Positions 31,563 to 48,903 are shown, counted from the stretch's first letter. The stretch: DNA of 64,000 nt from an uncultured Nitrososphaerota archaeon (GCA_963718895.1 CAVRAG010000008.1:576001-640000), one strand, 5' to 3'. Made by a program: numbers and translations. The notes: generated by a model from the letters alone, not told the origin.

Positions 31563-31976
31563 CTACACGAGTGAGATGGACTTTTTCTTCACGTCAACGG
31601 TGAGTTTGAAGTTCCTCAGGAAGCTTCGACCGAGCATGAAGTCGAAAGTGATGAAGCGTGGGGTCTCCAGCTCGAGCACGACGGCCTCAACATCCTTTGC
31701 GACGAGGCTCCCCACGGACACCTTCTGGAGCTTCACGAGGATTCCCCTTTCTATCCCGCGCATCTCCGTGAACCGTGGCACGGCCTCAGGGTGGAGTCTC
31801 TCCTCGTCAGGATGCTTGTTTCCGGCTTGGGCGTAGCCCATGTCCACCGCATCCATGGAGAGAATCGTGCAGTAGGGGGAGTTGAAGTTGATAATCGAGC
31901 TCAGCTCTCGCACGACGCCCATCCTGCCCTCTACACGAGCGGTCACCAGGGCGGGTTCCTTCAGCGGAAGCTTCAA
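31563..31976 (-). CDS. Retropepsin-like protein B1 (catalytic DTG replaced by NFN)
   Basis: C-terminal FDFMLGRSFLRNFKLTVD hallmark. Confidence 0.75.
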   Translation of the reverse strand: MKLPLKEPALVTARVEGRMGVVRELSSIINFNSPYCTILSMDAVDMGYAQAGNKHPDEERLHPEAVPRFTEMRGIERGILVKLQKVSVGSLVAKDVEAVVLELETPRFITFDFMLGRSFLRNFKLTVDVKKKSISLV

Positions 31977-32434
31977 CCTTGCACCCCCTTCCTCACGTCC
32001 TCGACCCTTAGCTGCCCGACCGAGTAGTCAATCTCCAGCTTCATGAACTGCAAGACGCTCCGACCAAGAACTACGTCGAAACCTGTCACCGCAGGCAGGT
32101 CAAGGGCAAGGAAATCTACTTTCGTGAAGGACAGGTTCCCGAGCTCAACACGAGCCATCTCGATCAGTGCCGCCCTTCCGTATCCACCATAGCTTGTAAA
32201 CGTTAGCGTGTTGTTGGCTGGCGTAACCGGGTCGTCGTTTGCTGCTTCTGGGTATCCGAGCGCGTAGGCGTCGACCTTGGGTACGATGCAATACTCCACG
32301 CCGGGATCAAGCAGCGCATTGAACTCCCTGGTGCCACCGCTTCTCCCGGTCAGCCGCACGAACACCGTAGGGAATTTGCCGTACGCGTGCTCGCTGATGG
32401 GAGCTGAGGACTGAACTAGAGGAGGAGCGGATAT
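31973..32434 (-). CDS. Retropepsin-like protein A1 (DPG); possible ATA start at 32434, first canonical GTG at 32365
   Basis: ALLDPGVEY, FDVVLGRSVL. Confidence 0.75.
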   Translation of the reverse strand: MSAPPLVQSSAPISEHAYGKFPTVFVRLTGRSGGTREFNALLDPGVEYCIVPKVDAYALGYPEAANDDPVTPANNTLTFTSYGGYGRAALIEMARVELGNLSFTKVDFLALDLPAVTGFDVVLGRSVLQFMKLEIDYSVGQLRVEDVRKGVQG

Positions 32435-32682
32435 GGGGGCTCACCCGCAAAGAAGATGCAGATGTCCTTGTATTTCTTCAGTTTCATTCTCAGCAAGTAG
32501 CGGTCCATGTCGTCCGCGACCACCTTCCCCTTCGTCGGCTGGAGGTTCTTGTCACGTCCGGTGACACTGATAGCGACCCACCTACCCTTGTATCGTTTGA
32601 AGATTTCAGGTAGGGCAAGTTCCTCCGGCTCGCCTTGCCCTCCTGATGCTTGGACGTCCGTGCTCGAACTCATAGGAAGCAA
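32416..32682 (-). CDS. DUF5678-like small protein
   Basis: KRYKGRWVAI...GKVVA pattern, upstream of aspartyl-protease-like genes. Confidence 0.6.
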   Translation of the reverse strand: MLPMSSSTDVQASGGQGEPEELALPEIFKRYKGRWVAISVTGRDKNLQPTKGKVVADDMDRYLLRMKLKKYKDICIFFAGEPPYPLLL

Positions 32683-32715
32683 CGTCCCTATGAGTCCGAA
32701 CTATTTCAACTTGTG

Positions 32716-33795
32716 CTAGAAGGTGATTGGGTTTGTGCTGGTGGCTGGCTGTACCCCGGGGGTCGCGCCTGGGAGGCTGCGGAGCGCATTCGTCACCGCC
32801 CCAGCCAGGATGTACGTCCGGAACCCGTTCCCCTGACCCAGGCCGTTCGCTCCGAGACTTTCGTGTGTCAGAGGCGTCGCTCCTTCGATGGCCTTAGCAG
32901 CCGCGTTTGCAATCGTCCCCTCGTTCAGAGTCTGGCCGTTGATGGCACCCTCTGCGGCGCTCGATCTGAAGGGTTTCGTGGCGACGTGTCCGAGCACTAT
33001 CTTGGCGTTGGAGGGCGTGTTCCCGTTGAAGGTAGCGACCACTGCGCAACTTGCAAGCGGGAAGTCGATAGCCGTCCTGTCAGCTATCCTGAAGTAGGCC
33101 GACTGGCTTCCAGATGGAGGCGCGGGTATGTTGATCTGGGTCACTATCTCGTTGTAGCGGAGGCTGTTCTCCTTGACACGGCCGTCCACGATACTGACTC
33201 CGGGCAGGAACTGCTCCATCGTCTTGGTGCTGGAGCCTCCTGGGCCCTGTATCGTCAGGGTGGCGCCGAGTGCCATTAGCGCAGGCGAGAGGTCCGATGC
33301 GTGAACGGCATAGCACAGGTTGCCTCCGAAGAGGCTGTGGTAGTAGCGGTTGTCCCCGACTATGGCGTAGCAGACGTTGCCGCCGTTCCGCCAGCAGTCG
33401 TAGTTGTTTCGCAGGTACCAGCACCAGACCTCCTGGTTGATGTTCCCACCCGCGGTGGCCTGGCTGGCTATCTGGACAGTGTGTCCCGATGCTGCTGATG
33501 CGAGAGCGGGGTAGTACTGGATGACGTTGGGGTCGCTCTTGATGGTCGCGATGGGTGTAGTGGCGCCGATGGTCAGCCCACTACCCGAGCTGTAGTTGAT
33601 CCCGGATAGTCCGAGCTGGGAGATGTCGATGACCGTCTCTGGTATCAGCGCATCTATGTGGTTCTTCATCTGATAGAGAAGGTCGGTGCCGCCGGAGATG
33701 ACCCTCGCGTTGCCTCCGTTCTTGGTCAGAAGCGAGACTGCGTCGCTAACTGAGGTCGGTTGCAGATACCCGAATTTGCTTAGTTCGTATCTCAT
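32716..33795 (-). CDS. Xanthine oxidase family FAD-binding subunit with 4Fe-4S insertion (PaoB/HcrB-like), copy 1
   Basis: ISGGTDL, ATAGGN, CWYLRNNYDCWRNGGNVC...CYAVHASD. Confidence 0.9.
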   Translation of the reverse strand: MRYELSKFGYLQPTSVSDAVSLLTKNGGNARVISGGTDLLYQMKNHIDALIPETVIDISQLGLSGINYSSGSGLTIGATTPIATIKSDPNVIQYYPALASAASGHTVQIASQATAGGNINQEVWCWYLRNNYDCWRNGGNVCYAIVGDNRYYHSLFGGNLCYAVHASDLSPALMALGATLTIQGPGGSSTKTMEQFLPGVSIVDGRVKENSLRYNEIVTQINIPAPPSGSQSAYFRIADRTAIDFPLASCAVVATFNGNTPSNAKIVLGHVATKPFRSSAAEGAINGQTLNEGTIANAAAKAIEGATPLTHESLGANGLGQGNGFRTYILAGAVTNALRSLPGATPGVQPATSTNPITF

Positions 33796-33812
33796 TTCTA
33801 TTCACCATCCAC

Positions 33813-36278
33813 CTATAGCTTCCCGTTCTGCTTCATCCATTGCAGAGCCAGGACGACGTCCTCCTTTCTGACTGGGGTTTTGATGAACCTGTACCCACCC
33901 ATGGCGTTGCTCAGCGCGTTCAGGATAGTCGGGATGACGCTCATGAGCGTGTTCTCGCCGATTCCCACTGCGCCGAACGGGCCGTAGGCGTCGTTGTACT
34001 CTGACCACAGTGACAGAGCACGGTTGGGAGCCTGGTAGATGGTCGAAATCTTGCTGTCGAGATAGTTGGGGCTCAGAGTGCCTCCCGAGTACTTCAGGCC
34101 GGTCGAGGAGTCGTTCAAGGTTGTTTCGAAGAGCGTCTCACTGACTCCCAGCCCGAGGAATCCACCCTGGTTCTGGCCGTTCGCACCCATCGCGAAGATG
34201 ACACGTCCGAGGCCAAGCGCTCCGACGTAGTCTACGACTCGGACATCGGCCGTCTCGGTGTCGACTTCGACTTCGCAGATCTTCGTCCCGCCGACACGAT
34301 ACGCGGTCCTCGGTGGAGGAGTGTACGTGCCGACGCCCGTGAGACCCGCGGCCGGCAAGAGCGCGCATGCCGCCTTGAAGGTCATCTGGTTCGTGGGGTT
34401 GGTGGTATCGAAGATGATTCCCGAAGGCTGGCCTGATAGGCCACCGCCGAACGCAAGGTTGGTCGCTTTGGTCCCTGCGGCTAGCTTTGCGGCGATCAGC
34501 GGGAACCACTGGGTCCCTAGGTTCGCCGCGGCTGCCACAAGTCCCATACCTCCGTTGCGAGTCATCCTGCTTCCAGCCGTGACTCCGGTGTCCGTTGTGA
34601 GGGTGGTGTCTGACATGACTGCTGTCAGGTTGGTCATGTCCGGTTGGCCCAGGAGCTCGGCCGCGATGATCGGCAGGGCTGTGACTCCTCCACCTCCGTG
34701 GTCCATCCCTCCGGAGTACATGGTGATCGCACCCGAGGGCACGACCTTGATCTGGCCGGTGTCAGGCGCCGAGAGCGCTCCCTTAGCCCCGGACGTCAGA
34801 GCGATTCCGACTCCTCTGAGCTTCTTCCCGGTCCCGGTCGTCTCGCCGGAGTTCGTCAACGAGTTGCTCGGGGTGCCCCAGCCCTTCCACCTGCCGCTCC
34901 AGTTGAAGGCCCTCGTGGCCTTGAAGTGGCAGTCTGGCTGTCCGTATCCGCTGTACGGGTATCCGGTGGTGTGGTCGAACGCGGTGTTGGAGAAGACCTG
35001 TCCCGTCACCGAGTCGGTGAACGCCGCGGTCCTCATGTTCTGCAGTCTGAATGCAGCCGGGTCCATGTTCATCTTCTCGGCGAGCATGTCCACAACAGTC
35101 TCAACGTACCAGTGGTTCTGGCTCTCGCCGACATCTCGCATCGGGCCCGCGAGGGCGTAGGCGTTGCTGTTCGCCGAGTAGCTGACGAGGTTCATGTTGT
35201 CGACTTTGTAGATGGCGTAGAAGGCGCCCAGGTCGGAGTTGGCACCGCCGTTCGCGCCGACATTCGCATAGATGACTGCCTTGAACGCTGTGATGTTCCC
35301 AGAACTGTCGCATGCGGCCGTGATGTAGCCGCGCTCCGGATACCGGCTGGTCGTGGCGAGCGTATTGGTGTAGCGGGTGTTAAGGAACTTCACGACGCCT
35401 CCCGACTTCTTAGACATCGCGGTCGCTATGATGTACTCCTCGCCTGACGACTTGTTCCCGAGTCCGTTGCCAATCGAAGCGTTCTCATTGCCGCCTAGAG
35501 AGGTCCTCACCTGCACGTTCGCCGATGGGATGCCAAAGTAGTTCGCGACCGTAGATACAATCGAGTGCGCATACTGGGTGTTGCCCCAGATCTTGGCGGT
35601 TCCCTGTGATGTCGAAGCCCACTGCGCGATGAGTCCGCGAGGCTCCATGTCCATGTGCTGGATGTACTGCGTGTCTAGCCTTATGGTGACGACCTGGGCG
35701 GCAGCCGCTATCGCTGCGTCCGCGTTACCGAATGCGACCTGCGCCGATGATGGCTGAGCCACACCCTCCGTTATCGAGCCGCCGGGCGAGTTGCCGCCTG
35801 GCCAGATGGCCGGCGCGTTCGCCGCCAGCGCACCTTCGACGTCGAAGACGTACGGCAGAGGCTCGTACTCCACCTTGACCATGTTGATGTAGTCGTTGAG
35901 GAGGTGGGGCGTAGTGGCTCCGACCGCGACGACCGGGCACCCTGCGTACCTAGCCTGGGTCGTGGGAAGTGGCCCGCGGACCCTGTTGCCTGAGGTCGAG
36001 TAGTAGGTGTATTCGGGTAGGAAGTCCGTATCAAACCCTGTCAGAGTTATGGCCCCGGCCGCTTCGGCCTCGCTGACGTCTACACTCTTGATCAGGGCGT
36101 TGGGGTATGGACAGGTGACGTAGCCCATGTAGATAAAGCCAGTCGTAGCAGAGACGCCGACGTCGGTGGGCATGATGTCGCTCGTGAACTTCTTGGCGCC
36201 CGTGACCTTGGCGTACTGGTCGCGCCTGACGACCTTGGGGTTGCCGACGATTGCGAACGACGTAGGTGTGGTGCTCAT
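33813..36278 (-). CDS. Xanthine oxidase family molybdopterin-binding subunit, copy 1
   Basis: KVTGAKKF, VEYEPLP, MEPR, PMRDVGESQ, GSR, EVEVDTET, GPFGAVGIGE. Confidence 0.9.
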   Translation of the reverse strand: MSTTPTSFAIVGNPKVVRRDQYAKVTGAKKFTSDIMPTDVGVSATTGFIYMGYVTCPYPNALIKSVDVSEAEAAGAITLTGFDTDFLPEYTYYSTSGNRVRGPLPTTQARYAGCPVVAVGATTPHLLNDYINMVKVEYEPLPYVFDVEGALAANAPAIWPGGNSPGGSITEGVAQPSSAQVAFGNADAAIAAAAQVVTIRLDTQYIQHMDMEPRGLIAQWASTSQGTAKIWGNTQYAHSIVSTVANYFGIPSANVQVRTSLGGNENASIGNGLGNKSSGEEYIIATAMSKKSGGVVKFLNTRYTNTLATTSRYPERGYITAACDSSGNITAFKAVIYANVGANGGANSDLGAFYAIYKVDNMNLVSYSANSNAYALAGPMRDVGESQNHWYVETVVDMLAEKMNMDPAAFRLQNMRTAAFTDSVTGQVFSNTAFDHTTGYPYSGYGQPDCHFKATRAFNWSGRWKGWGTPSNSLTNSGETTGTGKKLRGVGIALTSGAKGALSAPDTGQIKVVPSGAITMYSGGMDHGGGGVTALPIIAAELLGQPDMTNLTAVMSDTTLTTDTGVTAGSRMTRNGGMGLVAAAANLGTQWFPLIAAKLAAGTKATNLAFGGGLSGQPSGIIFDTTNPTNQMTFKAACALLPAAGLTGVGTYTPPPRTAYRVGGTKICEVEVDTETADVRVVDYVGALGLGRVIFAMGANGQNQGGFLGLGVSETLFETTLNDSSTGLKYSGGTLSPNYLDSKISTIYQAPNRALSLWSEYNDAYGPFGAVGIGENTLMSVIPTILNALSNAMGGYRFIKTPVRKEDVVLALQWMKQNGKL

Positions 36279-36282
36279 CGCT

Positions 36283-37071
36283 CTAGGCACCTCCTGAGGT
36301 CGCAGCCAGATTCGTCGCAGCTAGTTGTATTGCCGCTATTATTTGCATGTAGTTCCCACATCGGCACAGGTTCCCGCTGACCCCAGCTTTGATATCATTG
36401 ACACTTGGGTTCGGGTTAGACTTTAGGAGGGCCGCTGCCGCCATGATGAAGCCGGGCCCACAGTAGGCACACTGGCCGCCGTCCTCCGTCACCCACGCCT
36501 GCTGCAGCGCGTTCACCACCGGATCGCCCTTGGCGATCTCTGCAGTCATTATGTTGTGACCGACGGCTCGGATCGCCATGATCGTGCAGGATTCATGTGG
36601 TGCTCCATCTATGAGGACTGTGCACGCGCCGCATTCCATCCTGTTGCATGGTCTCTTGGTCGCGATCAGGCCCATAGTGTCCCTCAGAACGTCAACGAGC
36701 ATGCTTCTCGGTTCCACGGTGACGACGAAGGCCTTGTTGTTTACGTTTAGAGTGATCGTTCGCGGAGCGGTTGGATCAGTTGGTAACACCGGCGGTGGAG
36801 CTGGCAGGGTTGCGGTGTTGGTGAGAGTGTAGGTCGAGCTGGTCGAGGAGCTAGATGAAGCCTGCTCCTTTACCGGCTTGAACTGCGCACCCCTCATCGC
36901 AACCGAAGAAACGCCGACCACGGCGACCGCGGTCGCGGTACCCTTCAGCAGGGTCCTCCTGCTGACTTTGGCGTTCGCGATATCTGCCACCGCGCCGCCA
37001 ATACCCGCTTTGGGGGCTTCGACTTTCTTAACTAGAGAAGAACCTTTCTTTTGCTCCTTCTTGACTTTCAT
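36283..37071 (-). CDS. Tat-signal 2x[2Fe-2S] subunit (PaoA-like), copy 1
   Basis: SRRTLLK signal; CNRMECGACTV, QCAYCGPG, NLCRCG. Confidence 0.9.
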   Translation of the reverse strand: MKVKKEQKKGSSLVKKVEAPKAGIGGAVADIANAKVSRRTLLKGTATAVAVVGVSSVAMRGAQFKPVKEQASSSSSTSSTYTLTNTATLPAPPPVLPTDPTAPRTITLNVNNKAFVVTVEPRSMLVDVLRDTMGLIATKRPCNRMECGACTVLIDGAPHESCTIMAIRAVGHNIMTAEIAKGDPVVNALQQAWVTEDGGQCAYCGPGFIMAAAALLKSNPNPSVNDIKAGVSGNLCRCGNYMQIIAAIQLAATNLAATSGGA

Positions 37072-37113
37072 TTCGGTCAGGTTGTGGCCCGTGCCGAGCT
37101 ATATGTCACATTC

Positions 37114-37129
37114 CCCGAACGTATTCGGG
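37114..37129. promoter_or_regulatory. Palindromic operator CCCGAA-N4-TTCGGG upstream of Mo-enzyme operon 1
   Basis: CCCGAAcgtaTTCGGG; repeated at 40437-40456 and 48884-48903. Confidence 0.7.
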
Positions 37130-37180
37130 TAACTGCTTTAATGGCGAACAGAGACGCTCAAGAACATCGCTGAGATCTGT

Positions 37181-37918
37181 TTGTCATCAGAGCCCGTCGA
37201 GGACGCAGAAGTCGTTCGGAGGAAGGTGCTGGCCGAAGGCCTAGGATTCGTCCTCAATGCGTACCTCGGGACCCGCAGCCTCCTTAGTCCGACGGGGCTC
37301 GCGGCCAACGCGCTCAACCAGTACGAGCAGCAGCTCACAAATCAGGAGAGGGAGCAGCTCGGCAAGCAAGAAACCGAGATGCGGGCGATGGTGAGTCAGA
37401 TCGAGAACCTCAAGGCGACGTTCGAGGACGGCAGGCTCGTGGTCCATCTCGACAAGGCGACGGTGCTGGGGCTTGTTGAGAGGACGCTCAGGAAATCTCT
37501 GGCGCGTGAGGAGGCGGGGATGACTGGAGTCTTCAACCTTGACCTGGGCGTCCCTGACGATAAGGATCATGAAGCCGAATTCTCGCTGCCGAACCGCAGC
37601 GTATACTTGAAGTTCGTACCTGAAGGGAGGCCGCTGGCAGAGTTCGCGAACTCGTACCTTCTGAGGGCCCAGGACATGAACCCCTCCGAGTACTGGCTGA
37701 TCACGCCGAGCTGGGATACGATCGACTTCCCTTTCGAACCGGTCTTCACCGAGAACAGGATTGCCCGAGGCAGGCTGAGAACCTTCAACCTAGCGAGCCT
37801 TCTCGTCGAGCTGGTCGGAACCGACTACGACGTCCTGGCGAGCTACGCCGCAGACGGCGGCTTCAGGTTCGTCATAAGCAAGAAGCAAGCGGCACCCTCA
37901 AACGAAGGTACGCGCTGA
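37181..37918 (+). CDS. Hypothetical protein (N-terminal coiled coil)
   Basis: 245 aa ORF with host-like codon usage, divergent from operon 1. Confidence 0.7.
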   Translation: MSSEPVEDAEVVRRKVLAEGLGFVLNAYLGTRSLLSPTGLAANALNQYEQQLTNQEREQLGKQETEMRAMVSQIENLKATFEDGRLVVHLDKATVLGLVERTLRKSLAREEAGMTGVFNLDLGVPDDKDHEAEFSLPNRSVYLKFVPEGRPLAEFANSYLLRAQDMNPSEYWLITPSWDTIDFPFEPVFTENRIARGRLRTFNLASLLVELVGTDYDVLASYAADGGFRFVISKKQAAPSNEGTR

Positions 37919-38103
37919 CCATCTTTCGCCCGGACGTCATATAGTGGCTCGAGTGATCCGCCCGCCTCCTTCCTCTTGTCAATCGCGCGATGAATCTGGA
38001 GATCTGAACCCCCTAGGTCTATCGTGGTCGGCATCCAAGAGGGAACCGGACAGCCGGACTAATCTTTGCAGCTGAAGAGATCAGGGAACAGCGATATCGT
38101 TCC

Positions 38104-38736
38104 CTAGCGGTATCTGAAGCTGGGGCCCACTGAAGCTGCGGCGGCGAGTCTGAGCAGGTCCTCCTGCCTGTCTACGTCGAGGAGGGAGGCTTCCGAGGTC
38201 TCTACGAGCCGAAGCTGGGACCTGTGCCTTGACACGACGCTCTTGAGCCCTCTGGTCTCCTCGTCGATGTTCTCGAGCTCTCCGAGGAGATTCCGGTCGA
38301 AGAGGATGGGGTGTCCCGAACTCCCATGATACCCCGCCGTCACAATCGGGGAATAGCATGTCGAATACTCGTCTACCACGGCGTCAATCATGTTGTGGTC
38401 GACCAGGACGACGTCGCCCGGGAGGACTATCACCGCGTCGGCATTCTTCTTCACCCTGGTCAGACCTTTCCGTACCGAGAAGCTCTGTCCCTTCAGAAAG
38501 TCTTCGTTGAACACAAATTCGCACTTGTAGTCCTTGAGATTGCGCCTTATCTTCTCGGAGTCGTGTCCGAGCACAACGATGACCTGCTTGGCCTTCGACT
38601 TGAGGCTCTCTGAGACGACGCGCCCTACCATCGTGTTTGATCCGATCGGCTCGAGAAGCTTGTTGCGCCCGAAACGTGTGGACAATCCGGCCGCGAGAAC
38701 AATGATCGAGACAAAGTCAGTTGTTTTTTCTGTCAA
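38104..38736 (-). CDS. mocA: Molybdenum cofactor cytidylyltransferase
   Basis: LAAGLSTRFGRNKLL, GD, GHPILF, DVD. Confidence 0.85.
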   Translation of the reverse strand: MTEKTTDFVSIIVLAAGLSTRFGRNKLLEPIGSNTMVGRVVSESLKSKAKQVIVVLGHDSEKIRRNLKDYKCEFVFNEDFLKGQSFSVRKGLTRVKKNADAVIVLPGDVVLVDHNMIDAVVDEYSTCYSPIVTAGYHGSSGHPILFDRNLLGELENIDEETRGLKSVVSRHRSQLRLVETSEASLLDVDRQEDLLRLAAAASVGPSFRYR

Positions 38737-38932
38737 CTAGGCATGACTTCACTCCCCAGAGGGGACGGTAGCTGCCTGGGCTCACGCGCGGCTGACGGAA
38801 CCTATTCTCGGTGCCGATGGATTCGGACAGGACTCGTAGGAGGTCGCTCGAAACGAGATAGAGTCGTCCTTGGCTCAAGACGCACCGCACCTTACGACGG
38901 TGTTGTGCGACTTGGCCAAGCGCGTCCTCTCC

Positions 38933-39397
38933 TTAGACGTATCTCTTGCCGACGTACCCCATCGCGAGGCCCCACAGTCCGAAGAAGACTGCGAGGGGGA
39001 TGAGGACCTCCAGTGTCACGGTGAAGGACATCGTCTGAAGGGTCCCGGTGAGCTGGGGCGCCGTCCAGAATGCCAGATAGACGAGGAAAAGGAACCAAGC
39101 CACCAGGCCGACCGCCAATCCCTGGAATACCGTGTGTTCCTTGAAGGCGAAGGCGAAGATGAGCCCGGCGACTATGCTCAATACGACGAACCAGAGCACG
39201 CCCATCTCGGACACATAGCCCGACATGCCCTGCGCACCGAAGATCGATCCTAACCACGTGTACCACTGAATCTGCCACGTATACCCTAGTGCCGTGCCGA
39301 TGGACGTCACAACGATTATGGCAATCGTCGCCACCACCGTTGCCAGTACGCCCGCCATTATGCCCATTTCGGCCCTTGTCTTTGACGTCATGGTCAT
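38933..39397 (-). CDS. Four-TM membrane protein
   Basis: Four hydrophobic segments; overlaps the cytochrome b stop (ATGA). Confidence 0.75.
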   Translation of the reverse strand: MTMTSKTRAEMGIMAGVLATVVATIAIIVVTSIGTALGYTWQIQWYTWLGSIFGAQGMSGYVSEMGVLWFVVLSIVAGLIFAFAFKEHTVFQGLAVGLVAWFLFLVYLAFWTAPQLTGTLQTMSFTVTLEVLIPLAVFFGLWGLAMGYVGKRYV

Positions 39398-40436: not shown

Positions 40437-40456
40437 TACCCTAACAGGTTCGGGTA
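40437..40456. promoter_or_regulatory. Palindromic operator (one mismatch) upstream of cytochrome b
   Basis: TACCCTAAcaggTTCGGGTA. Confidence 0.6.
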
Positions 40457-40753: not shown

Positions 40754-41371
40754 TCAGGAGCGCTTCGAGAGGCCTAGGCGATCCCGGAGCCGACCTGCTT
40801 GCTTGCTGAGGCGAAGCAATGATGCTTCCGACGTCTTGACCAGATGGCTCTTCGACCTGTATCGGGCGAGGAGGCTCTTGAATCCGAGAATCTCGTCGTT
40901 CATGTTCTTAAGCTCCCCAAGAAGGTTCCTGTCAAAGAGGATAGGGTGCAGGGAGCTGCCGTGGTGACCGGTAGTCACGATTGGGGCGTAGCAGGTCGAG
41001 TACTCGCGAATCAACCTGTTTATCGTCGTGCGGTCCACCAGCGCGATGTCGCCGGGTACGACCATGACGGCGTCGGCCTCCTCTCTCACCGCAGAAAGAC
41101 CTTTCTTGATCGAGTAGCTCTGCCCCCTTGCGAAGTCCTCGTCGAGGACGATGTCGCAGGGATAGTCCCCGAGTGCGCTCCTCACCTTCTCTGCCTCGTA
41201 CCCGACCACTACTATGACCTGCTTGGCCTTCGAGGTCATGCATTCGGAGACGACGTAGTCTATCATCGGTCTCTCCGCGATAGGCTCGAGAAGCCTGTTC
41301 CGTCCTGACCTCATGGAGGAGCCGGAGGCGAGCACGATTATCGAGATGTAGTCCGGGTTCCTTTGTCTCAT
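40754..41371 (-). CDS. MocA paralogue, degenerate
   Basis: Clearly similar to 38104-38736 but LASGSSMRSGRNRLL and loss of the C-terminal DVD. Confidence 0.75.
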   Translation of the reverse strand: MRQRNPDYISIIVLASGSSMRSGRNRLLEPIAERPMIDYVVSECMTSKAKQVIVVVGYEAEKVRSALGDYPCDIVLDEDFARGQSYSIKKGLSAVREEADAVMVVPGDIALVDRTTINRLIREYSTCYAPIVTTGHHGSSLHPILFDRNLLGELKNMNDEILGFKSLLARYRSKSHLVKTSEASLLRLSKQAGRLRDRLGLSKRS

Positions 41372-41874
41372 TTCTCTCGGTTCTTCTAACTTCTCAGGTG
41401 GCGCGTGAGACGCCCCTCGTATATCTCTATTGTTTCTTCCCGTACCGTTAGACTTGACGAAGCCGCACACCCCGACAGATTGCCATCGCATCAAGGTATC
41501 TGCCTGAGTCTTCCATCCTGGGAGAGAGGACCTGACAGCTAACTCTCTTCTGTTGGGCTCGCCAGACTTCGCCCTAATCCCGCGATGCGGTCCGATAGGA
41601 CGTCCCTTCCTTGGTTCTAGTTTGCCTCTTCTTTGGCCGAATCTCCCCTCGGGCGCGATTTCATTCGCAGCTCGAGTGGAGCCACCTCAAGCGGGAATCG
41701 GCCTAGTAGTTCGATCTCAGAACCGATCAATCTGGTCCCTCTTCCACCAGGCTCTAAACCGGTTTCGACCCGGGCAATCTCGCGCACCTGGCTCTGGTCT
41801 CAATAAGCGATCTCGGGTCCCCATCGTTTCCGGATGCTGAGAGTTATGAAAGGCAAGACTATGTCTGAGTCGGT

Positions 41875-42936
41875 CTAGTGCCCATGAATCACCCCTCTTC
41901 CCAGCTTGACAAGCTGGGCCCTCAAACCCCTATGGTACAGAGTGAGACTTACCCTTCTCCGCTCAAGATTTGCCCACCTGCGCAGATACGGCAGGTTGTT
42001 GAGGAAGTCCAGCTCGCTTACCCTGCTTCTGTCGGAGAAGAGATTCTTTACTACTTCATGAAGGAGAACGAAACCCGGAGAGTAGTCAGAAAGGTCTTCT
42101 ACGTACGCCGTGTACAGAGCGTAGGCCATTGGCCCTTGGTGGGACAAGAACCAGAAGGCTTCTGTCTCACCGTTAAGGGACAGCTCCTGTACATCGAGGC
42201 CCCCTCTCGCACTGGCCAGCTCGAACTGGTCCGTCATGAGCCTGAGCCCCGAGGCGAGCGTCTGTCTCTTGCCCTTCCAGCTCCTAGTCATGACGTTGGT
42301 CATCCTCTTGATCAGGCCCCCCGTCCCATCCGGCGACCTAGTTCTTTGGACGTTCCAGACTCCCAAACCGTAGAGGCGACTGGCGGCTTCGCGGTACCTC
42401 TTCCTCAGGTGCGCGCCTCTCGATGAGATGTAAGAATCCCAACTCCCTTCCAGGGATACCGATAATGTGCTTCCCCTTGAAGCAGAATGCAGAGGAAGCG
42501 CGAACTCTCGCGAAATCTTCTCGACCATTTGAACGGTGGGGGAGTCCTGGAGGAGGGAACACAGCTCCATGTAGTCCCAGTCCGTCTCTTCCCGGAGAAG
42601 AAACGTGATGAAGCTCCTGAGCACCTCAACCCTCTGGCCGGGATCCAGTAGAAAGTCAGAGGTCATGTATCTGGGCGTGATGAACGAGACCTTCCTGGCC
42701 TCGATTGAGCGCCACTTGACCCTCGTCAATCTCAATGGAGCAATCCCCACGACTCCTCCTCGTTCTCTAGCGACCAGGACCTTCAGAAACTTCCCCGCCA
42801 AATCCCGTTCGAAGACGAGGTTCTGGTCGAACGTCGCTCCGATGCCAAATCCGGGAGCGAGCGTGCTTAGTCTCGTCCAGTCGTCTTCCAGCTTCTTAAC
42901 CTCGCGAACGGAGTCGACTAGTTCAATCGTGACCAT
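41875..42936 (-). CDS. GNAT family protein (CelD/BcsL-like)
   Basis: VGIAPL, YSPGFVLL, ELDFL. Confidence 0.75.
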   Translation of the reverse strand: MVTIELVDSVREVKKLEDDWTRLSTLAPGFGIGATFDQNLVFERDLAGKFLKVLVARERGGVVGIAPLRLTRVKWRSIEARKVSFITPRYMTSDFLLDPGQRVEVLRSFITFLLREETDWDYMELCSLLQDSPTVQMVEKISREFALPLHSASRGSTLSVSLEGSWDSYISSRGAHLRKRYREAASRLYGLGVWNVQRTRSPDGTGGLIKRMTNVMTRSWKGKRQTLASGLRLMTDQFELASARGGLDVQELSLNGETEAFWFLSHQGPMAYALYTAYVEDLSDYSPGFVLLHEVVKNLFSDRSRVSELDFLNNLPYLRRWANLERRRVSLTLYHRGLRAQLVKLGRGVIHGH

Positions 42937-43355
42937 TCCGGAGATCGACCCATCCCGTGCGCTCGGGCGTCGAGAACCCCGCACCATTTGAGCAGCTAAC
43001 TAGAAATCTGCGTAGAATATAAGAGAACCTAGAAAAAGAGTGAAAGATAGCATAGAATTTGATGAGTTAAGGAGTCGAGCCGCTAGGGAGATGAAACGAC
43101 TTGAGGCCGGACCTCGAGAAGCAACCAAACAATCTGCTAGGCCACGCAGCGGCTCAAACGCACTTGCAGTTGCCACCACGTCAGGGCCACCACCGTGGCA
43201 AGAGTTCCTCTTCTAGGTACGCGCATCCAGTCCTCCGCGGAGCACTCTTCGGATTCAGTCCAAAGTCTTTGCTCCTTCGCGTTCATGAAGAAGGACTTCC
43301 TTGTGACTCCCAGTCGGCACTGCCAACCTGCCAGAATGGCATGGCAATCCTGTAA

Positions 43356-43817
43356 TCAGGCATTCCCGGCCGGGCTAGGTGGCCTCTTTCCCGAAGGGAG
43401 CAGAGAAAGGTAACCGTCCTTCCCATTATTCATGTCAACTGTGAGCTTGAAATTCTTCAAGAATGTGCGGCCCAGAATCATCTCGAAGGTGTGCAAGGGT
43501 AGATGTGGCAGTTCGAGCACCACAGCGTCCACGTTCTCGGAAACCAAGCTACCGAGCGACACCTTGGTGAGAGTCACCAGAATGCCTCGCTCTATGCCGC
43601 GCATGGTGGTAAACCAAGGCACCCTGTCGGGGTGAATCCGCCCCCAGCTGACGGCTTTGTTTGCCGCTTCCGGATAGCCAAGGTCTATCCCGTCTTGAAA
43701 GAGGACCACGCAATACGGAGAATTGAAGTCAATGACCGAGCTCAACTCCCTCACACGACCGTTTTGACCTTCTATTCGAGCGCTTACCAGCATAGGATAC
43801 CTTAGAGCGAATTTCAC
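43356..43817 (-). CDS. Retropepsin-like protein B2 (DFN)
   Basis: Paralogue of 31563-31976; MILGRTFLKNFKLTVD. Confidence 0.75.
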   Translation of the reverse strand: MKFALRYPMLVSARIEGQNGRVRELSSVIDFNSPYCVVLFQDGIDLGYPEAANKAVSWGRIHPDRVPWFTTMRGIERGILVTLTKVSLGSLVSENVDAVVLELPHLPLHTFEMILGRTFLKNFKLTVDMNNGKDGYLSLLPSGKRPPSPAGNA

Positions 43818-44278
43818 GGTTCTGCTCCCTTCTTCCTCATGTCTTCTATCCTCAACTGCCCAACCGAATAATCGAATTCAAGCCTCATGAACTTCAACAG
43901 GCTCCGTCCTAGGACGACGTCGAACCCTGTCGTCTGAGGAAGGTCGGAGGCGACAAACTCGACATTCTCGAAGGAAGTGCTTCCCAGGCTCAGCTGCGCG
44001 ATTCTGATCATTACCGCCCTGAAATACCCATTATAGCTTGAAAAGGTTACTGTGTTGGCAGGCATCGTTACGGGGTTATCGAGCGCGGCTTCTCGATAGC
44101 CGAGCAAGTGAGCATCTACCTTTGGCATGATACAGTACTCGGCGCCGACGTCGACCAGCGCGCTAAACTCTCTCACGATCTCGTTGCGGCCCCTTAGGCG
44201 CACAAATATGGTCGGGAATTTACGGAAGGTATGTTCGGTTACGGATGTGGGAGGGAAAGCTACAGGAGCAGAGGATAT
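43814..44278 (-). CDS. Retropepsin-like protein A2 (DVG); possible ATA start at 44278, first canonical GTG at 44203
   Basis: Paralogue of A1; FDVVLGRSLL. Confidence 0.75.
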   Translation of the reverse strand: MSSAPVAFPPTSVTEHTFRKFPTIFVRLRGRNEIVREFSALVDVGAEYCIMPKVDAHLLGYREAALDNPVTMPANTVTFSSYNGYFRAVMIRIAQLSLGSTSFENVEFVASDLPQTTGFDVVLGRSLLKFMRLEFDYSVGQLRIEDMRKKGAEP

Positions 44279-44523
44279 GGAGGTTCACCAGCATAGAGGA
44301 TACAGATGTCGGCGTATTTCAATATCTTCTGCCTCAGTCTCTACCGGTCCAGGTCGGTCGCGACCACCCTGCCACTTGTCGGCTGAAAGTTCCTGTCTCT
44401 TGCGGTATCTGTCATGGCCACCCAAGTAGACTTGTGTCTCCTGAAATTTTCGGAGAGAGCAAGGTTCTCCGGCTCACCTTGCTCTCGGGTTGGCAGGTCG
44501 TTTGGAGTCGAACCCAGAGACAT
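44260..44523 (-). pseudogene. DUF5678-like copy 2 with in-frame TAG at 44341-44343
   Basis: After the stop the frame continues RLRQKILKYADICILYAGEPPYPLLL*, matching copy 1 where the codon is TAC. Confidence 0.7.
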
Positions 44524-44528
44524 CGACT

Positions 44529-45566
44529 CTACGGGTTCAGTGCCCGCAGCGCGTTCTTCACCACTCCCTGCGCGATGAATACTCGGAATCCGTTCCCCTG
44601 ACCCAGGCCGTGCGCCCCGACGCTCTCGTGCGTCAGCGGTGTGGCACCTGAGAGGGCGTTCTTCGCCGCCTGCGTGATGTCACTCTCTGACAGAGGGAGT
44701 GTCTTTCCGGCGAGGTATGATTCTGCCGAGGAGGATCTGATGGGCTTGTTGGCGACGTGACCCAGCACCACCCTGGCGCTGGAGATTGTGCTCCCGCTTG
44801 TCGTCGCGACGACAGCCGCGCTCGCGAGTGGGAAGTCGACCGCACCCCTGTCGGTCATTCTGAAGAACGTGCTGAGCGTCCCTGATGCGGGCGCGGGCAC
44901 ATTGATCTGGGTCACTATCTCGTTGAAGCGGAGGCTGTTCTCCTTGACACGGCCGTCCACTATGGAGACGCCCGGCATGAACTGGTCCATCGTCTTGGTG
45001 CTCGAGCCTCCCGGACCCTGCACCGTCAGAGTGGCGTCGTGGGCGAAGAGGGCCGTCGTAAGGTCTCCAGCGTGGACCGCGTAGCAGAGGTTGCCTCCGA
45101 AGATGCTGTGGTAGTAGCGGTTGTCCCCGGCGGTGGCGTAGCAGACGTTGCCGCCGTTCCTCCAGCAGTCGTAGTTGTTTCGCAGGTACCAGCACCAGAC
45201 CTCCTGGCTGATGTCCCCGGCGGCGGTGGCCTGGCTGGCTATCTGGTTTGGATGCCCCGTGGTCGCCCCCGCGATCGCGCCGTAGTACTTGTTGACGTTC
45301 GGATCGTTCGAGACTGTGAGGACGTTCGCGGTCGCTCCGATGGTCAGACCGGTGCTCGGGCTGAAAGTTACCTGGTCGAGCCCAAGTCCTGCGATGTCCA
45401 CCACGTACTCCGGCGTCAGCCCATCTATCTGGTTCTTCATCTGGTAGAGCAGGTCCGTCCCTCCGGCGATGACCTTCGCGTTTCCTGCATACTTCGTCAG
45501 GAGTGATACCGCGTCGTCAACCGAGGTCGGCACCAGGTATCCGAATTGGTTTAGTTCGTTTCTCAT
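44529..45566 (-). CDS. Xanthine oxidase family FAD/4Fe-4S subunit, copy 2
   Basis: IAGGTDL, CWYLRNNYDCWRNGGNVC. Confidence 0.9.
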   Translation of the reverse strand: MRNELNQFGYLVPTSVDDAVSLLTKYAGNAKVIAGGTDLLYQMKNQIDGLTPEYVVDIAGLGLDQVTFSPSTGLTIGATANVLTVSNDPNVNKYYGAIAGATTGHPNQIASQATAAGDISQEVWCWYLRNNYDCWRNGGNVCYATAGDNRYYHSIFGGNLCYAVHAGDLTTALFAHDATLTVQGPGGSSTKTMDQFMPGVSIVDGRVKENSLRFNEIVTQINVPAPASGTLSTFFRMTDRGAVDFPLASAAVVATTSGSTISSARVVLGHVANKPIRSSSAESYLAGKTLPLSESDITQAAKNALSGATPLTHESVGAHGLGQGNGFRVFIAQGVVKNALRALNP

Positions 45567-45580
45567 TTCAATCCACTCTC

Positions 45581-48055
45581 CTATGATGGGAGCTTCCCGT
45601 TCGCCTCCATCCATTGCAGCGCCGTGACGATGTCCTCCTTCCTCACCGGGGTCTTGGTGAACCTGTATCCGCCCAGCGCGTTGCTAAGAGCGTTCAGGAT
45701 GCAGGGTATGACGCTGATGAGGCTGGGCTCGCCGATTCCGGTCGCGCCGAACGGACCTACCGGGTCGACGTATTCCTCATAGAGGACGTTCAGTGTGTCA
45801 GGCGCCATCGTTATCGTTGGGACCTTGTTGTCAAGGAAGTTGGCGTTGAGGGCGCCTCCGGAATACTTGAAGCCGTTTGACGAGTCGTTTATGTGCTCTT
45901 CGGTGAGCGACTCGCCTATCCCGTGTCCTATGAAGCCGCCCTGGGACTGACCCTCCGCGCCGTGCTGGAAGATGACGCGGCCAAGGCCAATTCCGACCAC
46001 CGCGTTTATCACGCGAACGTCAGCGGTCTCGGTATCTACCTCGACTTCGCACATCTTCGTGCCGCCGACACGGTACGTAAGGTTGGGGGAACCGAACACC
46101 AACCCCGAGTTCCCCGTAATCGTGGCGGGGAGGAGAGCGGCGGCTGCCTTGAAGGACATCGAGTTGCTCGGGTTGGTCGTGTCGTAGATCGTGTTGTTCC
46201 CGAAGGCGAGGTTGGCAGCCTGCGTCCCGGGCGCTAGCTTGGCGGCGACGATCGGGAACCATTGGCTCGCCAGATTCTGGGCGGCAACTACCTGGCCCAT
46301 GCCCCCGTCGCGTGTCCCCAGGCTGCCGAACGTGCCCAATGTGTCCGTCGTGAGGGAACTGTCCGACATGACGGCTGTCACGTTGCTGAAGTCGGTCTGA
46401 CCCAGGCACTCGGCAGCAATCAGCGGGATCGTCGTGTTCCCTCCGCCTCCATGGTCCATTATCCCTGAGTAGACCGTTATCGCGCCCGTGGGATCGACCG
46501 ATATCTGGCCCGAGCCGAACGCGAAGCCACCCTTCGCCGCAGAGAGTAGCGACATGCCGACCCCTCGCAGCTTCTGGCCTGTGCCCTGGGTCTCACCGGA
46601 GTTGACTGGCGTACCGCTCGGTACTCCCCAGCCCTTCCATCTGCCGCTCCAGTTGAAGGCTGCCGCTGTCCTGAGATGGATTGCCGGCTGGCTGAATCCG
46701 GAGAACGCTTGTCCGGTGCTCGGGTCGAACGCGGTGTCGGGGTAGACCGCTCCTGTTGACGGGTCGGTGTAACCCTTGGTTATCATGTTGTTGAGCCGGA
46801 AAGTCACGGGGTCTATGTTCAGCTTCTCGGCGAGCATGTCCACAGCCGTTTCCATGAAATAGGAGCACTGGCTCTCGCCGACATCGCGCATGGGACCGGA
46901 TGAACACATGCCGTTCGTGTTGGCCGAATAGTTCACGACATCGACGTTTGGAATGGTGTAGCTGGCGTAGAACTCGCTGAGTTCCGTTTCCGCCCCGTCG
47001 AGTGCACCAACGTTCGAGTATACTGAGGCCTTAACCGCTGTGATCTTTCCCGCGCTCGTCCCTGCAATCGTGACATAGGCGCGCATCGGAAAGCGGGCAG
47101 TTGTGGCGAGTGCGTCAGTCACCCTGGTGTTGAGGAATTTCACCGGCGCCCCTGCCTTCTTCGAGAGCGCCACCGCTGTGAGGTACTCTTCGCCGGTTGT
47201 CTTGTTGCCGGTGGCGCAACCTGCAACGGGGTTTCCTGTGGTTGTGTCGGCTCCACCGAGACCGACTCTGCAGACTATGTCGGCCGCCGGTATCATGAAG
47301 TAGCTCGAGACCTGTGCGGGAATCGAGGCGGCGTACTGCGAGTCGCACCAGATGTTGACCCCGCCGTCGGTTGTCCACTCTGCGACCAGCCCGCGGGGCT
47401 CGGTCGTGTAGTGCTGGACGAATTGGGTGTTCAGCACCGGGAGCGTGACCACCGCGTCGGCCGCCGCGATAGCTGCGTCAGCGTCGCCGAAAGCGACGGC
47501 GGCCGTACTCGGCGGATACCCGTTGTCTATACCAGCAGCCCCATTTGGAGAGTTGCCGCCCGGCCACAGCTGTGGCGCGCCCGGCTTCAGCGCTCCCTCT
47601 ACGTCGAAGACGTATGGGAGAGGCTCATATTCCACCTTGACCAGGTTGATTGCGTCGTTGAGCAAGTCCGGCGTGGCAGCCCCGACCGCGACCACGGGCT
47701 GGCCGGAGTACATACACTGGGGGTACGGGAGAGGTCCCCGGATTCTGCCATTCGAGGTGGAGTAATAGTTGAATTCAGGGAGGAAGTCCGTGTCCAGAGC
47801 CGATAGGGTAACGGCTCCAGCCGCCTCCGCTGCGCTCACATCAATGCTCTTGATCATCGCGTTTGGGTATGGGCAGGTGACGTAGCCCATGTAGACGAAG
47901 CTCGAGGCGCCGACGTGAGAGGGAAGGATGTCGCTCTGGTATACTCGCACACCTGTAATCTGGTTGTAGATGGCCCGTCTGTTGACCGTAGACTTTCCTA
48001 CCAGGTTGAAGGGGCCGTTGCCCTTTCCAACGTTTGAACCTACGGGAGAACTCAT
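45581..48055 (-). CDS. Xanthine oxidase family molybdopterin subunit, copy 2
   Basis: PMRDVGESQ, EVEVDTET, GPFGATGIGE. Confidence 0.9.
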   Translation of the reverse strand: MSSPVGSNVGKGNGPFNLVGKSTVNRRAIYNQITGVRVYQSDILPSHVGASSFVYMGYVTCPYPNAMIKSIDVSAAEAAGAVTLSALDTDFLPEFNYYSTSNGRIRGPLPYPQCMYSGQPVVAVGAATPDLLNDAINLVKVEYEPLPYVFDVEGALKPGAPQLWPGGNSPNGAAGIDNGYPPSTAAVAFGDADAAIAAADAVVTLPVLNTQFVQHYTTEPRGLVAEWTTDGGVNIWCDSQYAASIPAQVSSYFMIPAADIVCRVGLGGADTTTGNPVAGCATGNKTTGEEYLTAVALSKKAGAPVKFLNTRVTDALATTARFPMRAYVTIAGTSAGKITAVKASVYSNVGALDGAETELSEFYASYTIPNVDVVNYSANTNGMCSSGPMRDVGESQCSYFMETAVDMLAEKLNIDPVTFRLNNMITKGYTDPSTGAVYPDTAFDPSTGQAFSGFSQPAIHLRTAAAFNWSGRWKGWGVPSGTPVNSGETQGTGQKLRGVGMSLLSAAKGGFAFGSGQISVDPTGAITVYSGIMDHGGGGNTTIPLIAAECLGQTDFSNVTAVMSDSSLTTDTLGTFGSLGTRDGGMGQVVAAQNLASQWFPIVAAKLAPGTQAANLAFGNNTIYDTTNPSNSMSFKAAAALLPATITGNSGLVFGSPNLTYRVGGTKMCEVEVDTETADVRVINAVVGIGLGRVIFQHGAEGQSQGGFIGHGIGESLTEEHINDSSNGFKYSGGALNANFLDNKVPTITMAPDTLNVLYEEYVDPVGPFGATGIGEPSLISVIPCILNALSNALGGYRFTKTPVRKEDIVTALQWMEANGKLPS

Positions 48056-48059
48056 CGCT

Positions 48060-48842
48060 CTAGGCACCTCCTAGACTCGCCGCCGCAGCCTGTACCGCAT
48101 CGATTATGTGCAGGTAGTTTCCACATCGGCACAAGTTACCGCTCAACGCGGCCTTGATCTCGGGGACTGTCGGGTTCGGTTTGTTCTTCAGCAGGTATGT
48201 GGCGGCCATGATTTGACCCGACGCGCAGTAGCTGCACTGGCCCCCGTCTGAGGTAACCCAGGCCTGTTGTAGGGCGTTGACCACCGGGTCACCCGTGGTG
48301 ATCTCTGAGGTCACAATGGTATGGCCGACCGCCCTCACCGCTAGGATCGTGCACGATTCATGCGGCACGCCATCGATCAGGACGGTGCATCCTCCGCAGC
48401 ACATCCTGTCGCACGGCTTCTTCGTCGCTATCAGACCGAGGTCCTCCCTAAGCACGTCGACGAGCATCCTCCTGGGCTCCACGGTAGGAGTGTAGCTCGT
48501 ACCATTGACATTGAGCGTAATCGTTCGTGCGTCAAACGGAGTTGTCGCCACTATTGGCCCCGGCGTAGGAATGGAAGTATTGACGCTCGCAGTGGGGGAT
48601 ATCGTGACGTAGGAGGCCGACGAAGCTGCGGCCTGTTCTTTGATCCTGGATCCTCTCATAGCAAGAGTTGAGACGCCGACGACCGCAACGACAGCCGCAG
48701 TGCCTTTCATGAGGGTCCGTCTGCTCACCTTTGTGCTTGCAACGTCCTGAATCACTCCACCGGTCCCCCCGACGGAGATAGAGGCCTTCTTCTCAGGTTG
48801 AGTTGCCGAGGGAGCCTTTGTTGTCTCCTTCTTGGATTTCAT
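48060..48842 (-). CDS. Tat-signal [2Fe-2S] subunit, copy 2
   Basis: SRRTLMK; CDRMCCGGCTV, QCSYC, NLCRCG. Confidence 0.9.
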   Translation of the reverse strand: MKSKKETTKAPSATQPEKKASISVGGTGGVIQDVASTKVSRRTLMKGTAAVVAVVGVSTLAMRGSRIKEQAAASSASYVTISPTASVNTSIPTPGPIVATTPFDARTITLNVNGTSYTPTVEPRRMLVDVLREDLGLIATKKPCDRMCCGGCTVLIDGVPHESCTILAVRAVGHTIVTSEITTGDPVVNALQQAWVTSDGGQCSYCASGQIMAATYLLKNKPNPTVPEIKAALSGNLCRCGNYLHIIDAVQAAAASLGGA

Positions 48843-48883
48843 TCTGGTCAGAATTTAACATTACTCTTGGCATATTACGGGTA

Positions 48884-48903
48884 TCCCCGAACCTATTCGG
48901 GGA
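48884..48903. promoter_or_regulatory. Perfect palindromic operator upstream of Mo-enzyme operon 2
   Basis: TCCCCGAAcctaTTCGGGGA. Confidence 0.7.

Follow-up and report, generated by a model that had tools for sequence, protein, structure and literature searches.

A conserved DUF-retropepsin gene trio behind operons for predicted Tat-exported molybdoenzymes in Thermoproteota: a probable helper module

Overview

The stretch of DNA analysed here, called the window below, covers 64,000 nucleotides (G000:C8:576001-640000) of a 3.1 Mb genome in 11 contigs, whose uncultured host belongs to Candidatus Gagatemarchaeum, a genus of Nitrososphaerales without ammonia oxidation. On its minus strand the same order of six genes occurs twice, at 31563-37071 (copy 1) and 43356-48842 (copy 2): an iron-sulfur subunit (FeS) with a leader for twin-arginine translocation (Tat), a molybdenum subunit (Mo), a flavin subunit (FAD) with a [4Fe-4S] site, a small protein (here DUF) and two retropepsin-like proteins (RpA and RpB, jointly Rp). 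The last three genes, referred to as the trio, probably represent a previously undescribed helper module for such enzymes. The duplicated order was pointed out in an earlier note on this DNA, and the open reading frames are indeed where that note had placed them, on the minus strand. Within a copy the genes are closely packed, with an overlap of 4 nt between RpA and RpB and remaining intergenic gaps of -8 to 50 nt. The proteins of copy 1 are 59-70% identical to those of copy 2 (69% at the DNA level over 4023 bases); the duplication is therefore old, and all six genes have been kept in both copies.

Linkage of the trio to Tat-type operons

The earlier note had staked its reading on whether the trio follows Tat-type operons of the xanthine dehydrogenase (XDH) family in other genomes or is unlinked to molybdoenzymes there. 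Linkage was seen in several archaeal lineages, namely in the genus, a sister genus, another order and another class, as well as in metagenomes. In the host genome itself, tblastn places the trio at the two operons only. Within the genus, RpA is matched in 8/41 genomes, and every DUF/Rp set in the loci that were fetched lies directly behind FeS-Mo-FAD, with the exception of extra sets in one genome (G007), which has five full modules and, immediately downstream of two of them, extra partial sets. These extra DUF-RpA-RpB sets without enzyme genes (L022:11202-12229 and L023:10797-12667, each directly downstream of a complete module) are remnants of tandem partial duplications; one of them comprises an RpA with three stops, a fragment of the FAD gene and a lone extra DUF.

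The full six-gene order was also present at six of six further public genome loci. RpA is present in 10 of the 401 genomes of a class-wide sample, among them those of the sister genus and of a family from another order. A phylum-wide search with the DUF profile led to a family in another class (GC content 47%) with the full module. Both of these families have a divergent pair of genes for a cytochrome b and a four-helix membrane protein (TM154) next to it, which in the other class lies upstream. Among 42 metagenome loci, which were retrieved with a motif typical of operons of the window's kind (type 1) and two of which stem from one contig, FAD precedes DUF in all 37 loci with room for it, and RpA (38/38) and RpB (34/34) follow.

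Another order contributes a second operon type, in which DUF and only one retropepsin gene come after the enzyme genes. Identity to the window is no more than 26-30% for the Mo subunit, a distant relative, and about 38% for the FAD subunit; the FeS subunit carries a Tat leader. At two loci (L081 and L082, in genome G106) the leader is followed by a long Thr-rich linker and a PKD-like domain ahead of the [2Fe-2S] domains; by its sequence, this arrangement suggests a stalked, surface-displayed enzyme.

A relative of the FAD subunit (E<=1e-20) exists in 12 genomes of the class sample, and all 10 genomes with Rp are among these 12; Rp is absent from the other 389 of the 401 genomes, those without such a relative. 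In each of the two genomes that are FAD-positive and Rp-negative, one operon was examined and has no Tat leader. Since the linkage holds in every lineage with recognisable neighbours, it is not a matter of one local duplication that carried passengers along.

Selection and co-inheritance

When copy 1 is compared with its orthologue in genome G001, the ratio of nonsynonymous to synonymous substitution rates (dN/dS) is 0.05 for DUF, 0.06 for RpA and 0.17 for RpB, next to 0.10-0.15 for the enzyme genes. Values of 0.05-0.17 mean that the trio genes are under purifying selection. Moreover, the pairwise distances of FAD, DUF, RpA and RpB co-vary across 22 non-identical modules (r 0.58-0.79, reached in 0/500 permutations), as predicted by duplication and inheritance en bloc. 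The lineage of copy 2 looks to be under looser constraint: the dN/dS of its DUF (DUF2) against G007 is around 0.40, an approximate figure because the stretch compared overran the stop by a few codons, and RpA is split in the G007 orthologue of copy 2. G007 is a single-contig, long-read genome, and some of its breaks may be assembly errors.

The retropepsin-like proteins

RpA1 (29.5 bits) and RpA2 (35.5 bits) pass the cut-off of 24.3 bits for Asp_protease_2 (PF13650), and RpB1 (21.4 bits) and RpB2 (21.1 bits) stay below the Pfam threshold (28.2). RpB is 32-35% identical to RpA (E 2e-18 to 9e-21), which identifies the two as paralogues. For TIGR02281 the retropepsins of the window score 18-33 bits, against a cut-off of 58. 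The active-site motifs read DPGV (RpA1), NFNS (RpB1), DVGA (RpA2) and DFNS (RpB2). In the wider alignment, Asp occupies the catalytic position in 35/52 RpA-type rows, and the canonical motif D[TS]G[AS] occurs in 2/52; among the 43 RpB rows, 38 have Asp, none has the Gly (Asn in 38, Ser in 5) and none has the canonical motif. The lineage from the other class reads S-T-T-T/S in RpA and N-L-S-Y in RpB, with Asp in neither protein, and still keeps the module. As the earlier note described them, these retropepsins are degenerate. Judged by these motifs, RpA and RpB are read as pseudo-proteases, or at most as highly atypical proteases, and, with active sites so degenerate, the role in 'processing' that the same note had offered is unlikely if proteolysis is meant. 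For DUF, RpA and RpB alike, no signal peptide or membrane segment is apparent from reading the sequences, no predictor having been run.

The start of RpA deserves separate mention. In both copies, conserved coding sequence extends upstream of the annotated GTG, in RpA1 to about 32395. On the minus strand, at 32366-32400 and 44204-44240, the conserved peptide [ST]EH[AT][YF][GR]KFPT precedes the first ATG/GTG/TTG of RpA in each copy, and this stretch looks coding, given that the copies differ in it at synonymous third positions. Many homologues start canonically where DUF stops, about eight codons into this upstream frame; the copies of the window and their nearest clade carry CTA, GTA, GTT or ATx there. 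RpA invariably lies in frame -1 with respect to DUF. Taken at the level of sequence, the arrangement suggests a near-cognate start or termination-reinitiation. A programmed frameshift from DUF into RpA was considered, on account of this constant frame and of the missing canonical RpA start in the window, and rejected as the main reading, as the two copies share no slippery heptamer.

The DUF protein and its fusions

The label 'DUF5678-like' in the earlier note proved weak. The match to DUF5678 (PF18929) lies in the N-terminal part and is sub-threshold, with 17.1 of the 23.2 bits required (E 0.005); 5/16 close DUF homologues match it at E<=1 (best E 0.0027), and the best scores, 17.1 to 19 bits, never reach the gathering score. 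The true start of DUF1 is likely the ATG at codon 4. The protein always ends in three hydrophobic residues (LLL, LLV, VMI, VVI, VVL or LIL). An AlphaFold model built with 57 sequences (mean pLDDT 80, confident for residues 20-80) has the element order beta-alpha-beta-beta-alpha-beta. A Foldseek search of this model against the PDB returned nothing at E<=0.001, the best hit of a wide search with VIA (Z 3.5, to cytidine-deaminase-like chains) lies within noise, and the ESM Atlas gave unnamed clusters only (best 0.87).

Out of 1.84 billion, the DUF profile finds 259 representative clusters at E<=1e-3, 37 of them at E<=1e-10, with representatives nearly all 66-110 residues long. Two distant members have N-terminal stretches with sub-threshold matches to RHH_5 or HicB; a tblastn search of a distant RHH-DUF protein against plasmids gave no match. 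The DUF frame of copy 2 is interrupted at 44341-44343 by a TAG in place of the Tyr codon of copy 1, and the conserved C-terminus follows downstream in the same frame. A single change from Tyr to stop explains this TAG, with no need to read it as pyrrolysine; its origin may be a recent nonsense mutation, an error of sequencing or decay that is tolerated because the DUF of copy 1 can act in trans.

DUF-like and retropepsin sequences are also found as natural fusions. At least four such proteins of 196-203 aa join a DUF-like N-terminal half to a retropepsin half with canonical DTGA. In hhalign, the RpA profile of the window matches the retropepsin half of the fusions at E 4.4e-18 and the DUF profile matches their DUF half at E 6.3e-27, the latter alignment being reliable in its first half only. 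In a model of a fusion (pLDDT 87), the protease half matches 5c9f (a retropepsin-like protein of Rickettsia, E 1.8e-8), HIV-1 protease and DDI1. As Rosetta-stone fusions, these proteins imply that DUF and Rp work together, and their intact motif suggests that the ancestral DUF-Rp pair contained an active protease. Prediction of a complex of RpA, RpB and DUF from custom alignments, with DUF as the partner, scored 0.24 against a mark of 0.32, a value that speaks neither for nor against binding.

The molybdoenzyme

The earlier note had proposed an extracytoplasmic enzyme with the architecture of E. coli PaoABC, and the domain content agrees with this proposal. In Pfam, both FeS proteins match Fer2_2 above the cut-off (8.6e-24 in FeS 1), and Fer2 (cut-off 21) is passed by copy 1 (21.3), with copy 2 at 18.5; both Mo proteins match MoCoBD_1 and MoCoBD_2 above the cut-offs, and also Ald_Xan_dh_C, for which copy 1 passes marginally (31.5 vs 31.3); both FAD proteins exceed the cut-offs for FAD_binding_5 and CO_deh_flav_C. 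The closest solved chains of Mo subunit 1 are 7dqx_A, 8uem_A and 1t3q_B. FAD subunit 1 has its best solved match in 5y6q_B (aldehyde oxidase, 1.3e-32), followed by PaoB (5g5g_B), and the four Cys of its insert align with those of a [4Fe-4S] site in 5y6q_B. The best NCBIfam match of the FAD subunit is 4-hydroxybenzoyl-CoA reductase beta, and the scores for PaoA (118.4 vs 322 bits) and PaoC (94.5 vs 1180) fall far short of the NCBIfam equivalog cut-offs for orthology.

The FeS subunit has an N-terminal extension of about 100 residues, with a Lys-rich n-region, S-R-R-T-L-[LM]-K-G, a hydrophobic stretch and a Ser/Thr-rich linker. Pfam TAT_signal is sub-threshold on both proteins (17.3 and 20.5 bits vs 22.7), TIGR01409 (Tat) narrowly passes for FeS copy 1 (16.8 vs 16.7 bits), and the host genome encodes TatC. 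This leader is conserved within the close clade only, and is uninformative as a hint to a binding site. Genes for MocA-like cytidylyltransferases imply a molybdopterin cytosine dinucleotide (MCD) cofactor, and the protein of cytochrome b561 type, which resembles the FDH-N and hydrogenase gamma subunits most, is the likely electron acceptor. Each copy would encode, as one operon, a molybdenum (MCD) oxidoreductase of PaoABC-like build that is exported by Tat and tethered to the membrane, and that probably passes electrons to the neighbouring pair of cytochrome b and four-helix membrane protein. The enzyme part of the earlier reading (predicted extracytoplasmic location, PaoABC-like architecture, implied MCD cofactor, cytochrome b partner) is supported.

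The genes may be expressed, as judged from library matches of peat RNA. Contigs from peat metatranscriptomes (four runs of one study) cover FeS, Mo and FAD at 32652-37065; four of the contigs listed are without differences, and two of these four cross the FAD stop into the first DUF codons. No contig covers 31500-32645, and the contigs prove neither co-transcription nor silence.

No XdhC/PaoD-type gene was found with Pfam in the 64-kb window, in agreement with the earlier note, and the search elsewhere that the note proposed found three XdhC-family genes in the host genome (C8:930084-930833, C8:935204-935905 and C7:140840-141586). Two of them cluster with TusA, DsrE, FmdE and DUF364 about 290 kb away, and the third is found close to a cytoplasmic XDH-type locus. 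Replacement of XdhC by the trio need therefore not be assumed, and the idea of it, which the note had implied, is weakened. The order in the cluster (L087, G000:C8:929000-936100) is FmdE-like, XdhC, DUF364, two DsrE, Carb_kinase-like, TusA and a second XdhC, which looks, by gene content, like an island for sulfur relay and molybdenum cofactor (Moco) maturation. The trio is missing from the other XDH-family loci of the host genome, of which one is CoxL-like and has CoxG, one encodes a second Mo subunit, and one encodes a FAD subunit, with an FeS-subunit match and XdhC in its vicinity. On contig C7, an open reading frame with a Cas12f1-like TNB (TnpB-type) domain (L084:8686-10149) lies beside the genes for the FAD subunit and XdhC at a locus of cytoplasmic XDH type.

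Proposed role and alternative explanations

The position of the trio in the operon, which is like that of PaoD, the cytoplasmic type of its proteins, its restriction to Tat-type operons and a fold that, as a dimer, clamps extended peptides all lead to the reading that we favour tentatively and regard as quite possible, namely that the trio is a system-specific cytoplasmic factor for assembly and export escort of the Tat-exported enzyme. The three small proteins would remain in the cytoplasm and make up a single accessory unit dedicated to the enzyme. Retropepsin dimers provide the analogy for RpA and RpB, which would form a pseudo-protease heterodimer that retains the peptide-binding cleft, with DUF as an obligate small partner; where the second operon type has only one Rp, this protein would act as a homodimer instead. 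The dimer would bind a stretch of a subunit in extended form, in the likeliest case the long leader or linker of FeS, until FeS, Mo and FAD, loaded with their cofactors, have come together for export by the hitchhiker route. Heterodimer formation, the binding of DUF, the target and the chaperone role are what we infer. A more specific version, in which RpA, RpB and DUF are a new class of maturation factor for Tat-exported molybdoenzymes, with a protease dimer of retroviral type turned into a non-catalytic clamp on the FeS leader or linker and the hydrophobic DUF tail gating the cleft, is somewhat doubtful.

Several observations weigh against an escort factor. Most rows of RpA and RpB retain Asp, which leaves room for some atypical catalysis. 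The premature TAG of DUF2 and some broken RpA copies in G007 may reflect errors of assembly or true decay. With XdhC genes in the genome, the trio is not needed to explain the insertion of Moco. Three Tat operons of the second type (L149, L150 and L154) have no DUF/Rp in cis; G106 has four operons of this type, two of them with the pair; and the pair in G036, from another family, lies 9 kb from a Tat-type operon on the other strand. Linkage in cis is therefore not obligatory outside type 1. (The G036 pair adjoins YeeE-like, Se/S-carrier and Carb_kinase-like genes.) Finally, the metagenome loci were retrieved with a motif that typifies type 1. The carriers are without exception related Thermoproteota of soil or peat, which makes the counts interdependent, and they could be inflated by one cassette that spread horizontally.

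The retained Asp residues speak for the view that RpA and RpB (or the single Rp of the second type) form an atypical but active aspartic endopeptidase, with DUF as its regulator or inhibitor, that processes an enzyme subunit, for instance at a leader, linker or terminal extension, like hydrogenase maturation endopeptidases after metal insertion. The fold family is proteolytic and the relatives fused to DUF carry canonical DTGA, which adds to the 35/52 and 38/43 rows with Asp. Nevertheless, D[TS]G[AS] in a mere two of 52 rows, an RpB that never has the Gly, Asn for Asp in RpB1 of the window itself, and a lineage that keeps the module without Asp in both proteins make such a peptidase unlikely. 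The trio might also be part of the enzyme, as extra structural subunits that are assembled in the cytoplasm and co-exported by the hitchhiker route. Its operon position and coupling, like those of the enzyme genes, and its co-divergence with the FAD subunit would fit, and PaoB and PaoC exemplify leaderless partners that are co-exported (PMC4273604). This is very unlikely, however, in view of second-type Tat operons without trio genes in cis, of DUF-Rp pairs and fusions in apparently unrelated organisms without any sign of the enzyme, and of the three subunits of the solved PaoABC-type enzymes among the structural matches listed for the FAD subunit.

The breadth of the DUF family, with its 259 representatives at E<=1e-3 (37 at E<=1e-10) beyond these operons, the sub-threshold RHH_5 or HicB matches of two distant members and the G036 pair that adjoins no operon are what would be expected if DUF and retropepsin were a cassette complete in itself, for instance a regulated protease or a pair of the toxin-antitoxin kind, that was fixed behind a single ancestral operon and passively inherited, without a part in the enzyme. 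Yet the linkage has survived many paralogous duplications and two operon types with Mo subunits less than 30% identical, purifying selection is as strong as for the enzyme genes, the host genome has no further copy, and in the class sample the pair occurs only in genomes with a FAD-subunit relative, where the operons examined have Tat leaders. Passive inheritance is hardly probable on this evidence.

Locus and neighbouring genes

The features of the region are listed in Table 1. Between the two copies, the two mocA genes, the cytochrome b gene and the gene for a protein with four membrane helices, all reported in the earlier note, were confirmed with Pfam, NCBIfam and the sequence itself. The GNAT-family gene at 41875-42987 was not seen at the matching place in the loci of relatives and is probably outside the system. 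The protein p245 has 245 residues, and the orientation of its gene beside type-1 modules varies; Pfam, NCBIfam and the ESM Atlas gave no usable match for it. In genome G357, a match to the XdhC N-terminal domain falls about 150 bp past p245, as calculated from locus offsets. Terminator-like hairpins are as numerous in the region as in shuffled sequences.

Table 1. Features in and around the two gene modules (window coordinates)
Feature	Position	Strand	Remarks
HTH_10 regulator	30683..31342	-	directly downstream of copy 1; kept there in relatives
Terminator-like hairpin and T-run	31455..31478	-	85 nt past RpB1 stop; consensus match only
RpB1, degenerate retropepsin-like, site N-F-N-S	31563..31976	-	4-nt overlap of its start with the RpA1 stop
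RpA1, retropepsin-like, site D-P-G-V	31973..32365	-	Asp_protease_2 1.2e-6
DUF1, small alpha/beta protein	32416..32682	-	hydrophobic C-terminal tail PPYPLLL conserved
FAD subunit 1 with four-Cys insert (PaoB-type [4Fe-4S] site)	32716..33795	-	FAD_binding_5 4e-33
Mo subunit 1, molybdopterin-binding, XDH/CoxL family	33813..36290	-	MoCoBD_1 1.2e-39; MoCoBD_2 4.6e-30
FeS subunit 1	36283..37071	-	Lys-rich n-region, VSRRTLLKG, hydrophobic segment, Ser/Thr-rich linker, two [2Fe-2S] domains
p245, no known family	37181..37918	+	near module in most type-1 loci
MocA-like Moco cytidylyltransferase (a)	38104..38736	-	NTP_transf_3 7.4e-32; TIGR03310 6.4e-40, below cut-off
TM154, four-helix membrane protein	38933..39397	-	partnered with cytochrome b gene in all lineages
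Cytochrome b561-type membrane subunit	39394..40383	-	Ni_hydr_CYTB 1.7e-23; TIGR01583 1.5e-13
MocA-like Moco cytidylyltransferase (b)	40754..41494	-	
GNAT-family gene (Acetyltransf_6)	41875..42987	-	between operons
RpB2, degenerate retropepsin-like, site D-F-N-S	43356..43817	-	
RpA2, retropepsin-like, site D-V-G-A	43814..44203	-	Asp_protease_2 1.6e-8
DUF2	44260..44523	-	in-frame TAG 44341-44343; remaining frame intact to PPYPLLL
FAD/[4Fe-4S] subunit 2	44529..45614	-	
Mo subunit 2	45581..48067	-	
FeS subunit 2, Tat motif VSRRTLMKG	48060..48842	-	
Cupredoxin (plastocyanin/amicyanin-like), N-terminal hydrophobic segment	49147..49614	-	recurs near modules

Comparison with known systems

Tat-exported enzymes with several cofactors generally need dedicated cytoplasmic helpers. 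Well-known examples are the TorD/DmsD family, NapD and HyaE/HybE, all small cytoplasmic proteins that bind a Tat leader and are dedicated to their cognate cofactor enzyme; for archaeal enzymes of the XDH family, we know of no such dedicated helper. The role that we infer for the trio resembles that of these proteins and of the XdhC-family chaperones, which are likewise small and cytoplasmic, encoded with one cofactor enzyme and dedicated to it (PMC2997495). Unlike the Tat-leader chaperones, the trio consists of retropepsin barrels and a small alpha/beta protein without a solved match. In Pfam and NCBIfam, DUF, RpA and RpB have no match to the TorD/DmsD, NapD, HyaE/HybE or XdhC families, an absence that leaves a relation possible.

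The enzyme is a further member of a known family, and the trio is without a described counterpart in the literature searched, where nothing relevant was found on DUF5678, on retropepsins together with twin-arginine or on retropepsins together with molybdoenzymes; the main text of the Gagatemarchaeaceae genomics paper (PMC10640624) contains no occurrence of 'molybd-', 'xanthine', 'aldehyde', 'aspartyl' or 'twin-arginine'. If the helper role is true, the trio would be a protein scaffold new to enzyme maturation or to the proofreading of export, and a function would be given to a prokaryotic branch of the retropepsin fold and to some 260 clusters of small uncharacterised proteins. The analysis also flags an abundant, multi-copy, predicted extracytoplasmic oxidoreductase in uncultured Thaumarchaeota of acid soil and peat, whose substrate may bear on the lifestyle of these non-ammonia-oxidising archaea.

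As regards the individual proteins, RpA and RpB belong to the same fold family as APRc of Rickettsia (5c9f), the clan AA family TIGR02281 and the RVP domains of DDI1. Unlike the prokaryotic retropepsin-like proteases, which are encoded by one homodimer-forming gene, the window has two diverged tandem paralogues, in which D-T/S-G-A is not conserved and no membrane anchor is apparent. The window DUF is similar to Pfam DUF5678 in its small size and, weakly, in its N-terminal sequence, at scores below the gathering score. The aldehyde oxidase of Methylobacillus (5y6q), the best solved match of the FAD subunit with its four aligned Cys, is bacterial, and we know of no retropepsin or DUF accessory genes that accompany it.

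A close parallel is paoABCD of E. coli. The last gene of this operon encodes a system-specific chaperone (PMC3909100), and PaoABC is exported pre-assembled, as a trimer, by the Tat hitchhiker route (PMC4273604). Like PaoABC, the enzyme of the window has three subunits: one with two [2Fe-2S] clusters and the Tat leader, one that binds FAD and has a [4Fe-4S] site, and one for Mo. The MCD-type cofactor implied by the MocA-like genes is a further common trait. As in paoABCD, the accessory genes come last in the operon, so that the trio occupies the position held by the chaperone PaoD in E. coli. The differences from PaoABC are the gene order (A-C-B in the window), a Mo subunit nearer to 6-hydroxypseudooxynicotine dehydrogenase, CoxL and quinoline oxidoreductase, an adjacent gene for a cytochrome b partner, and DUF, RpA and RpB in the place of XdhC/PaoD.

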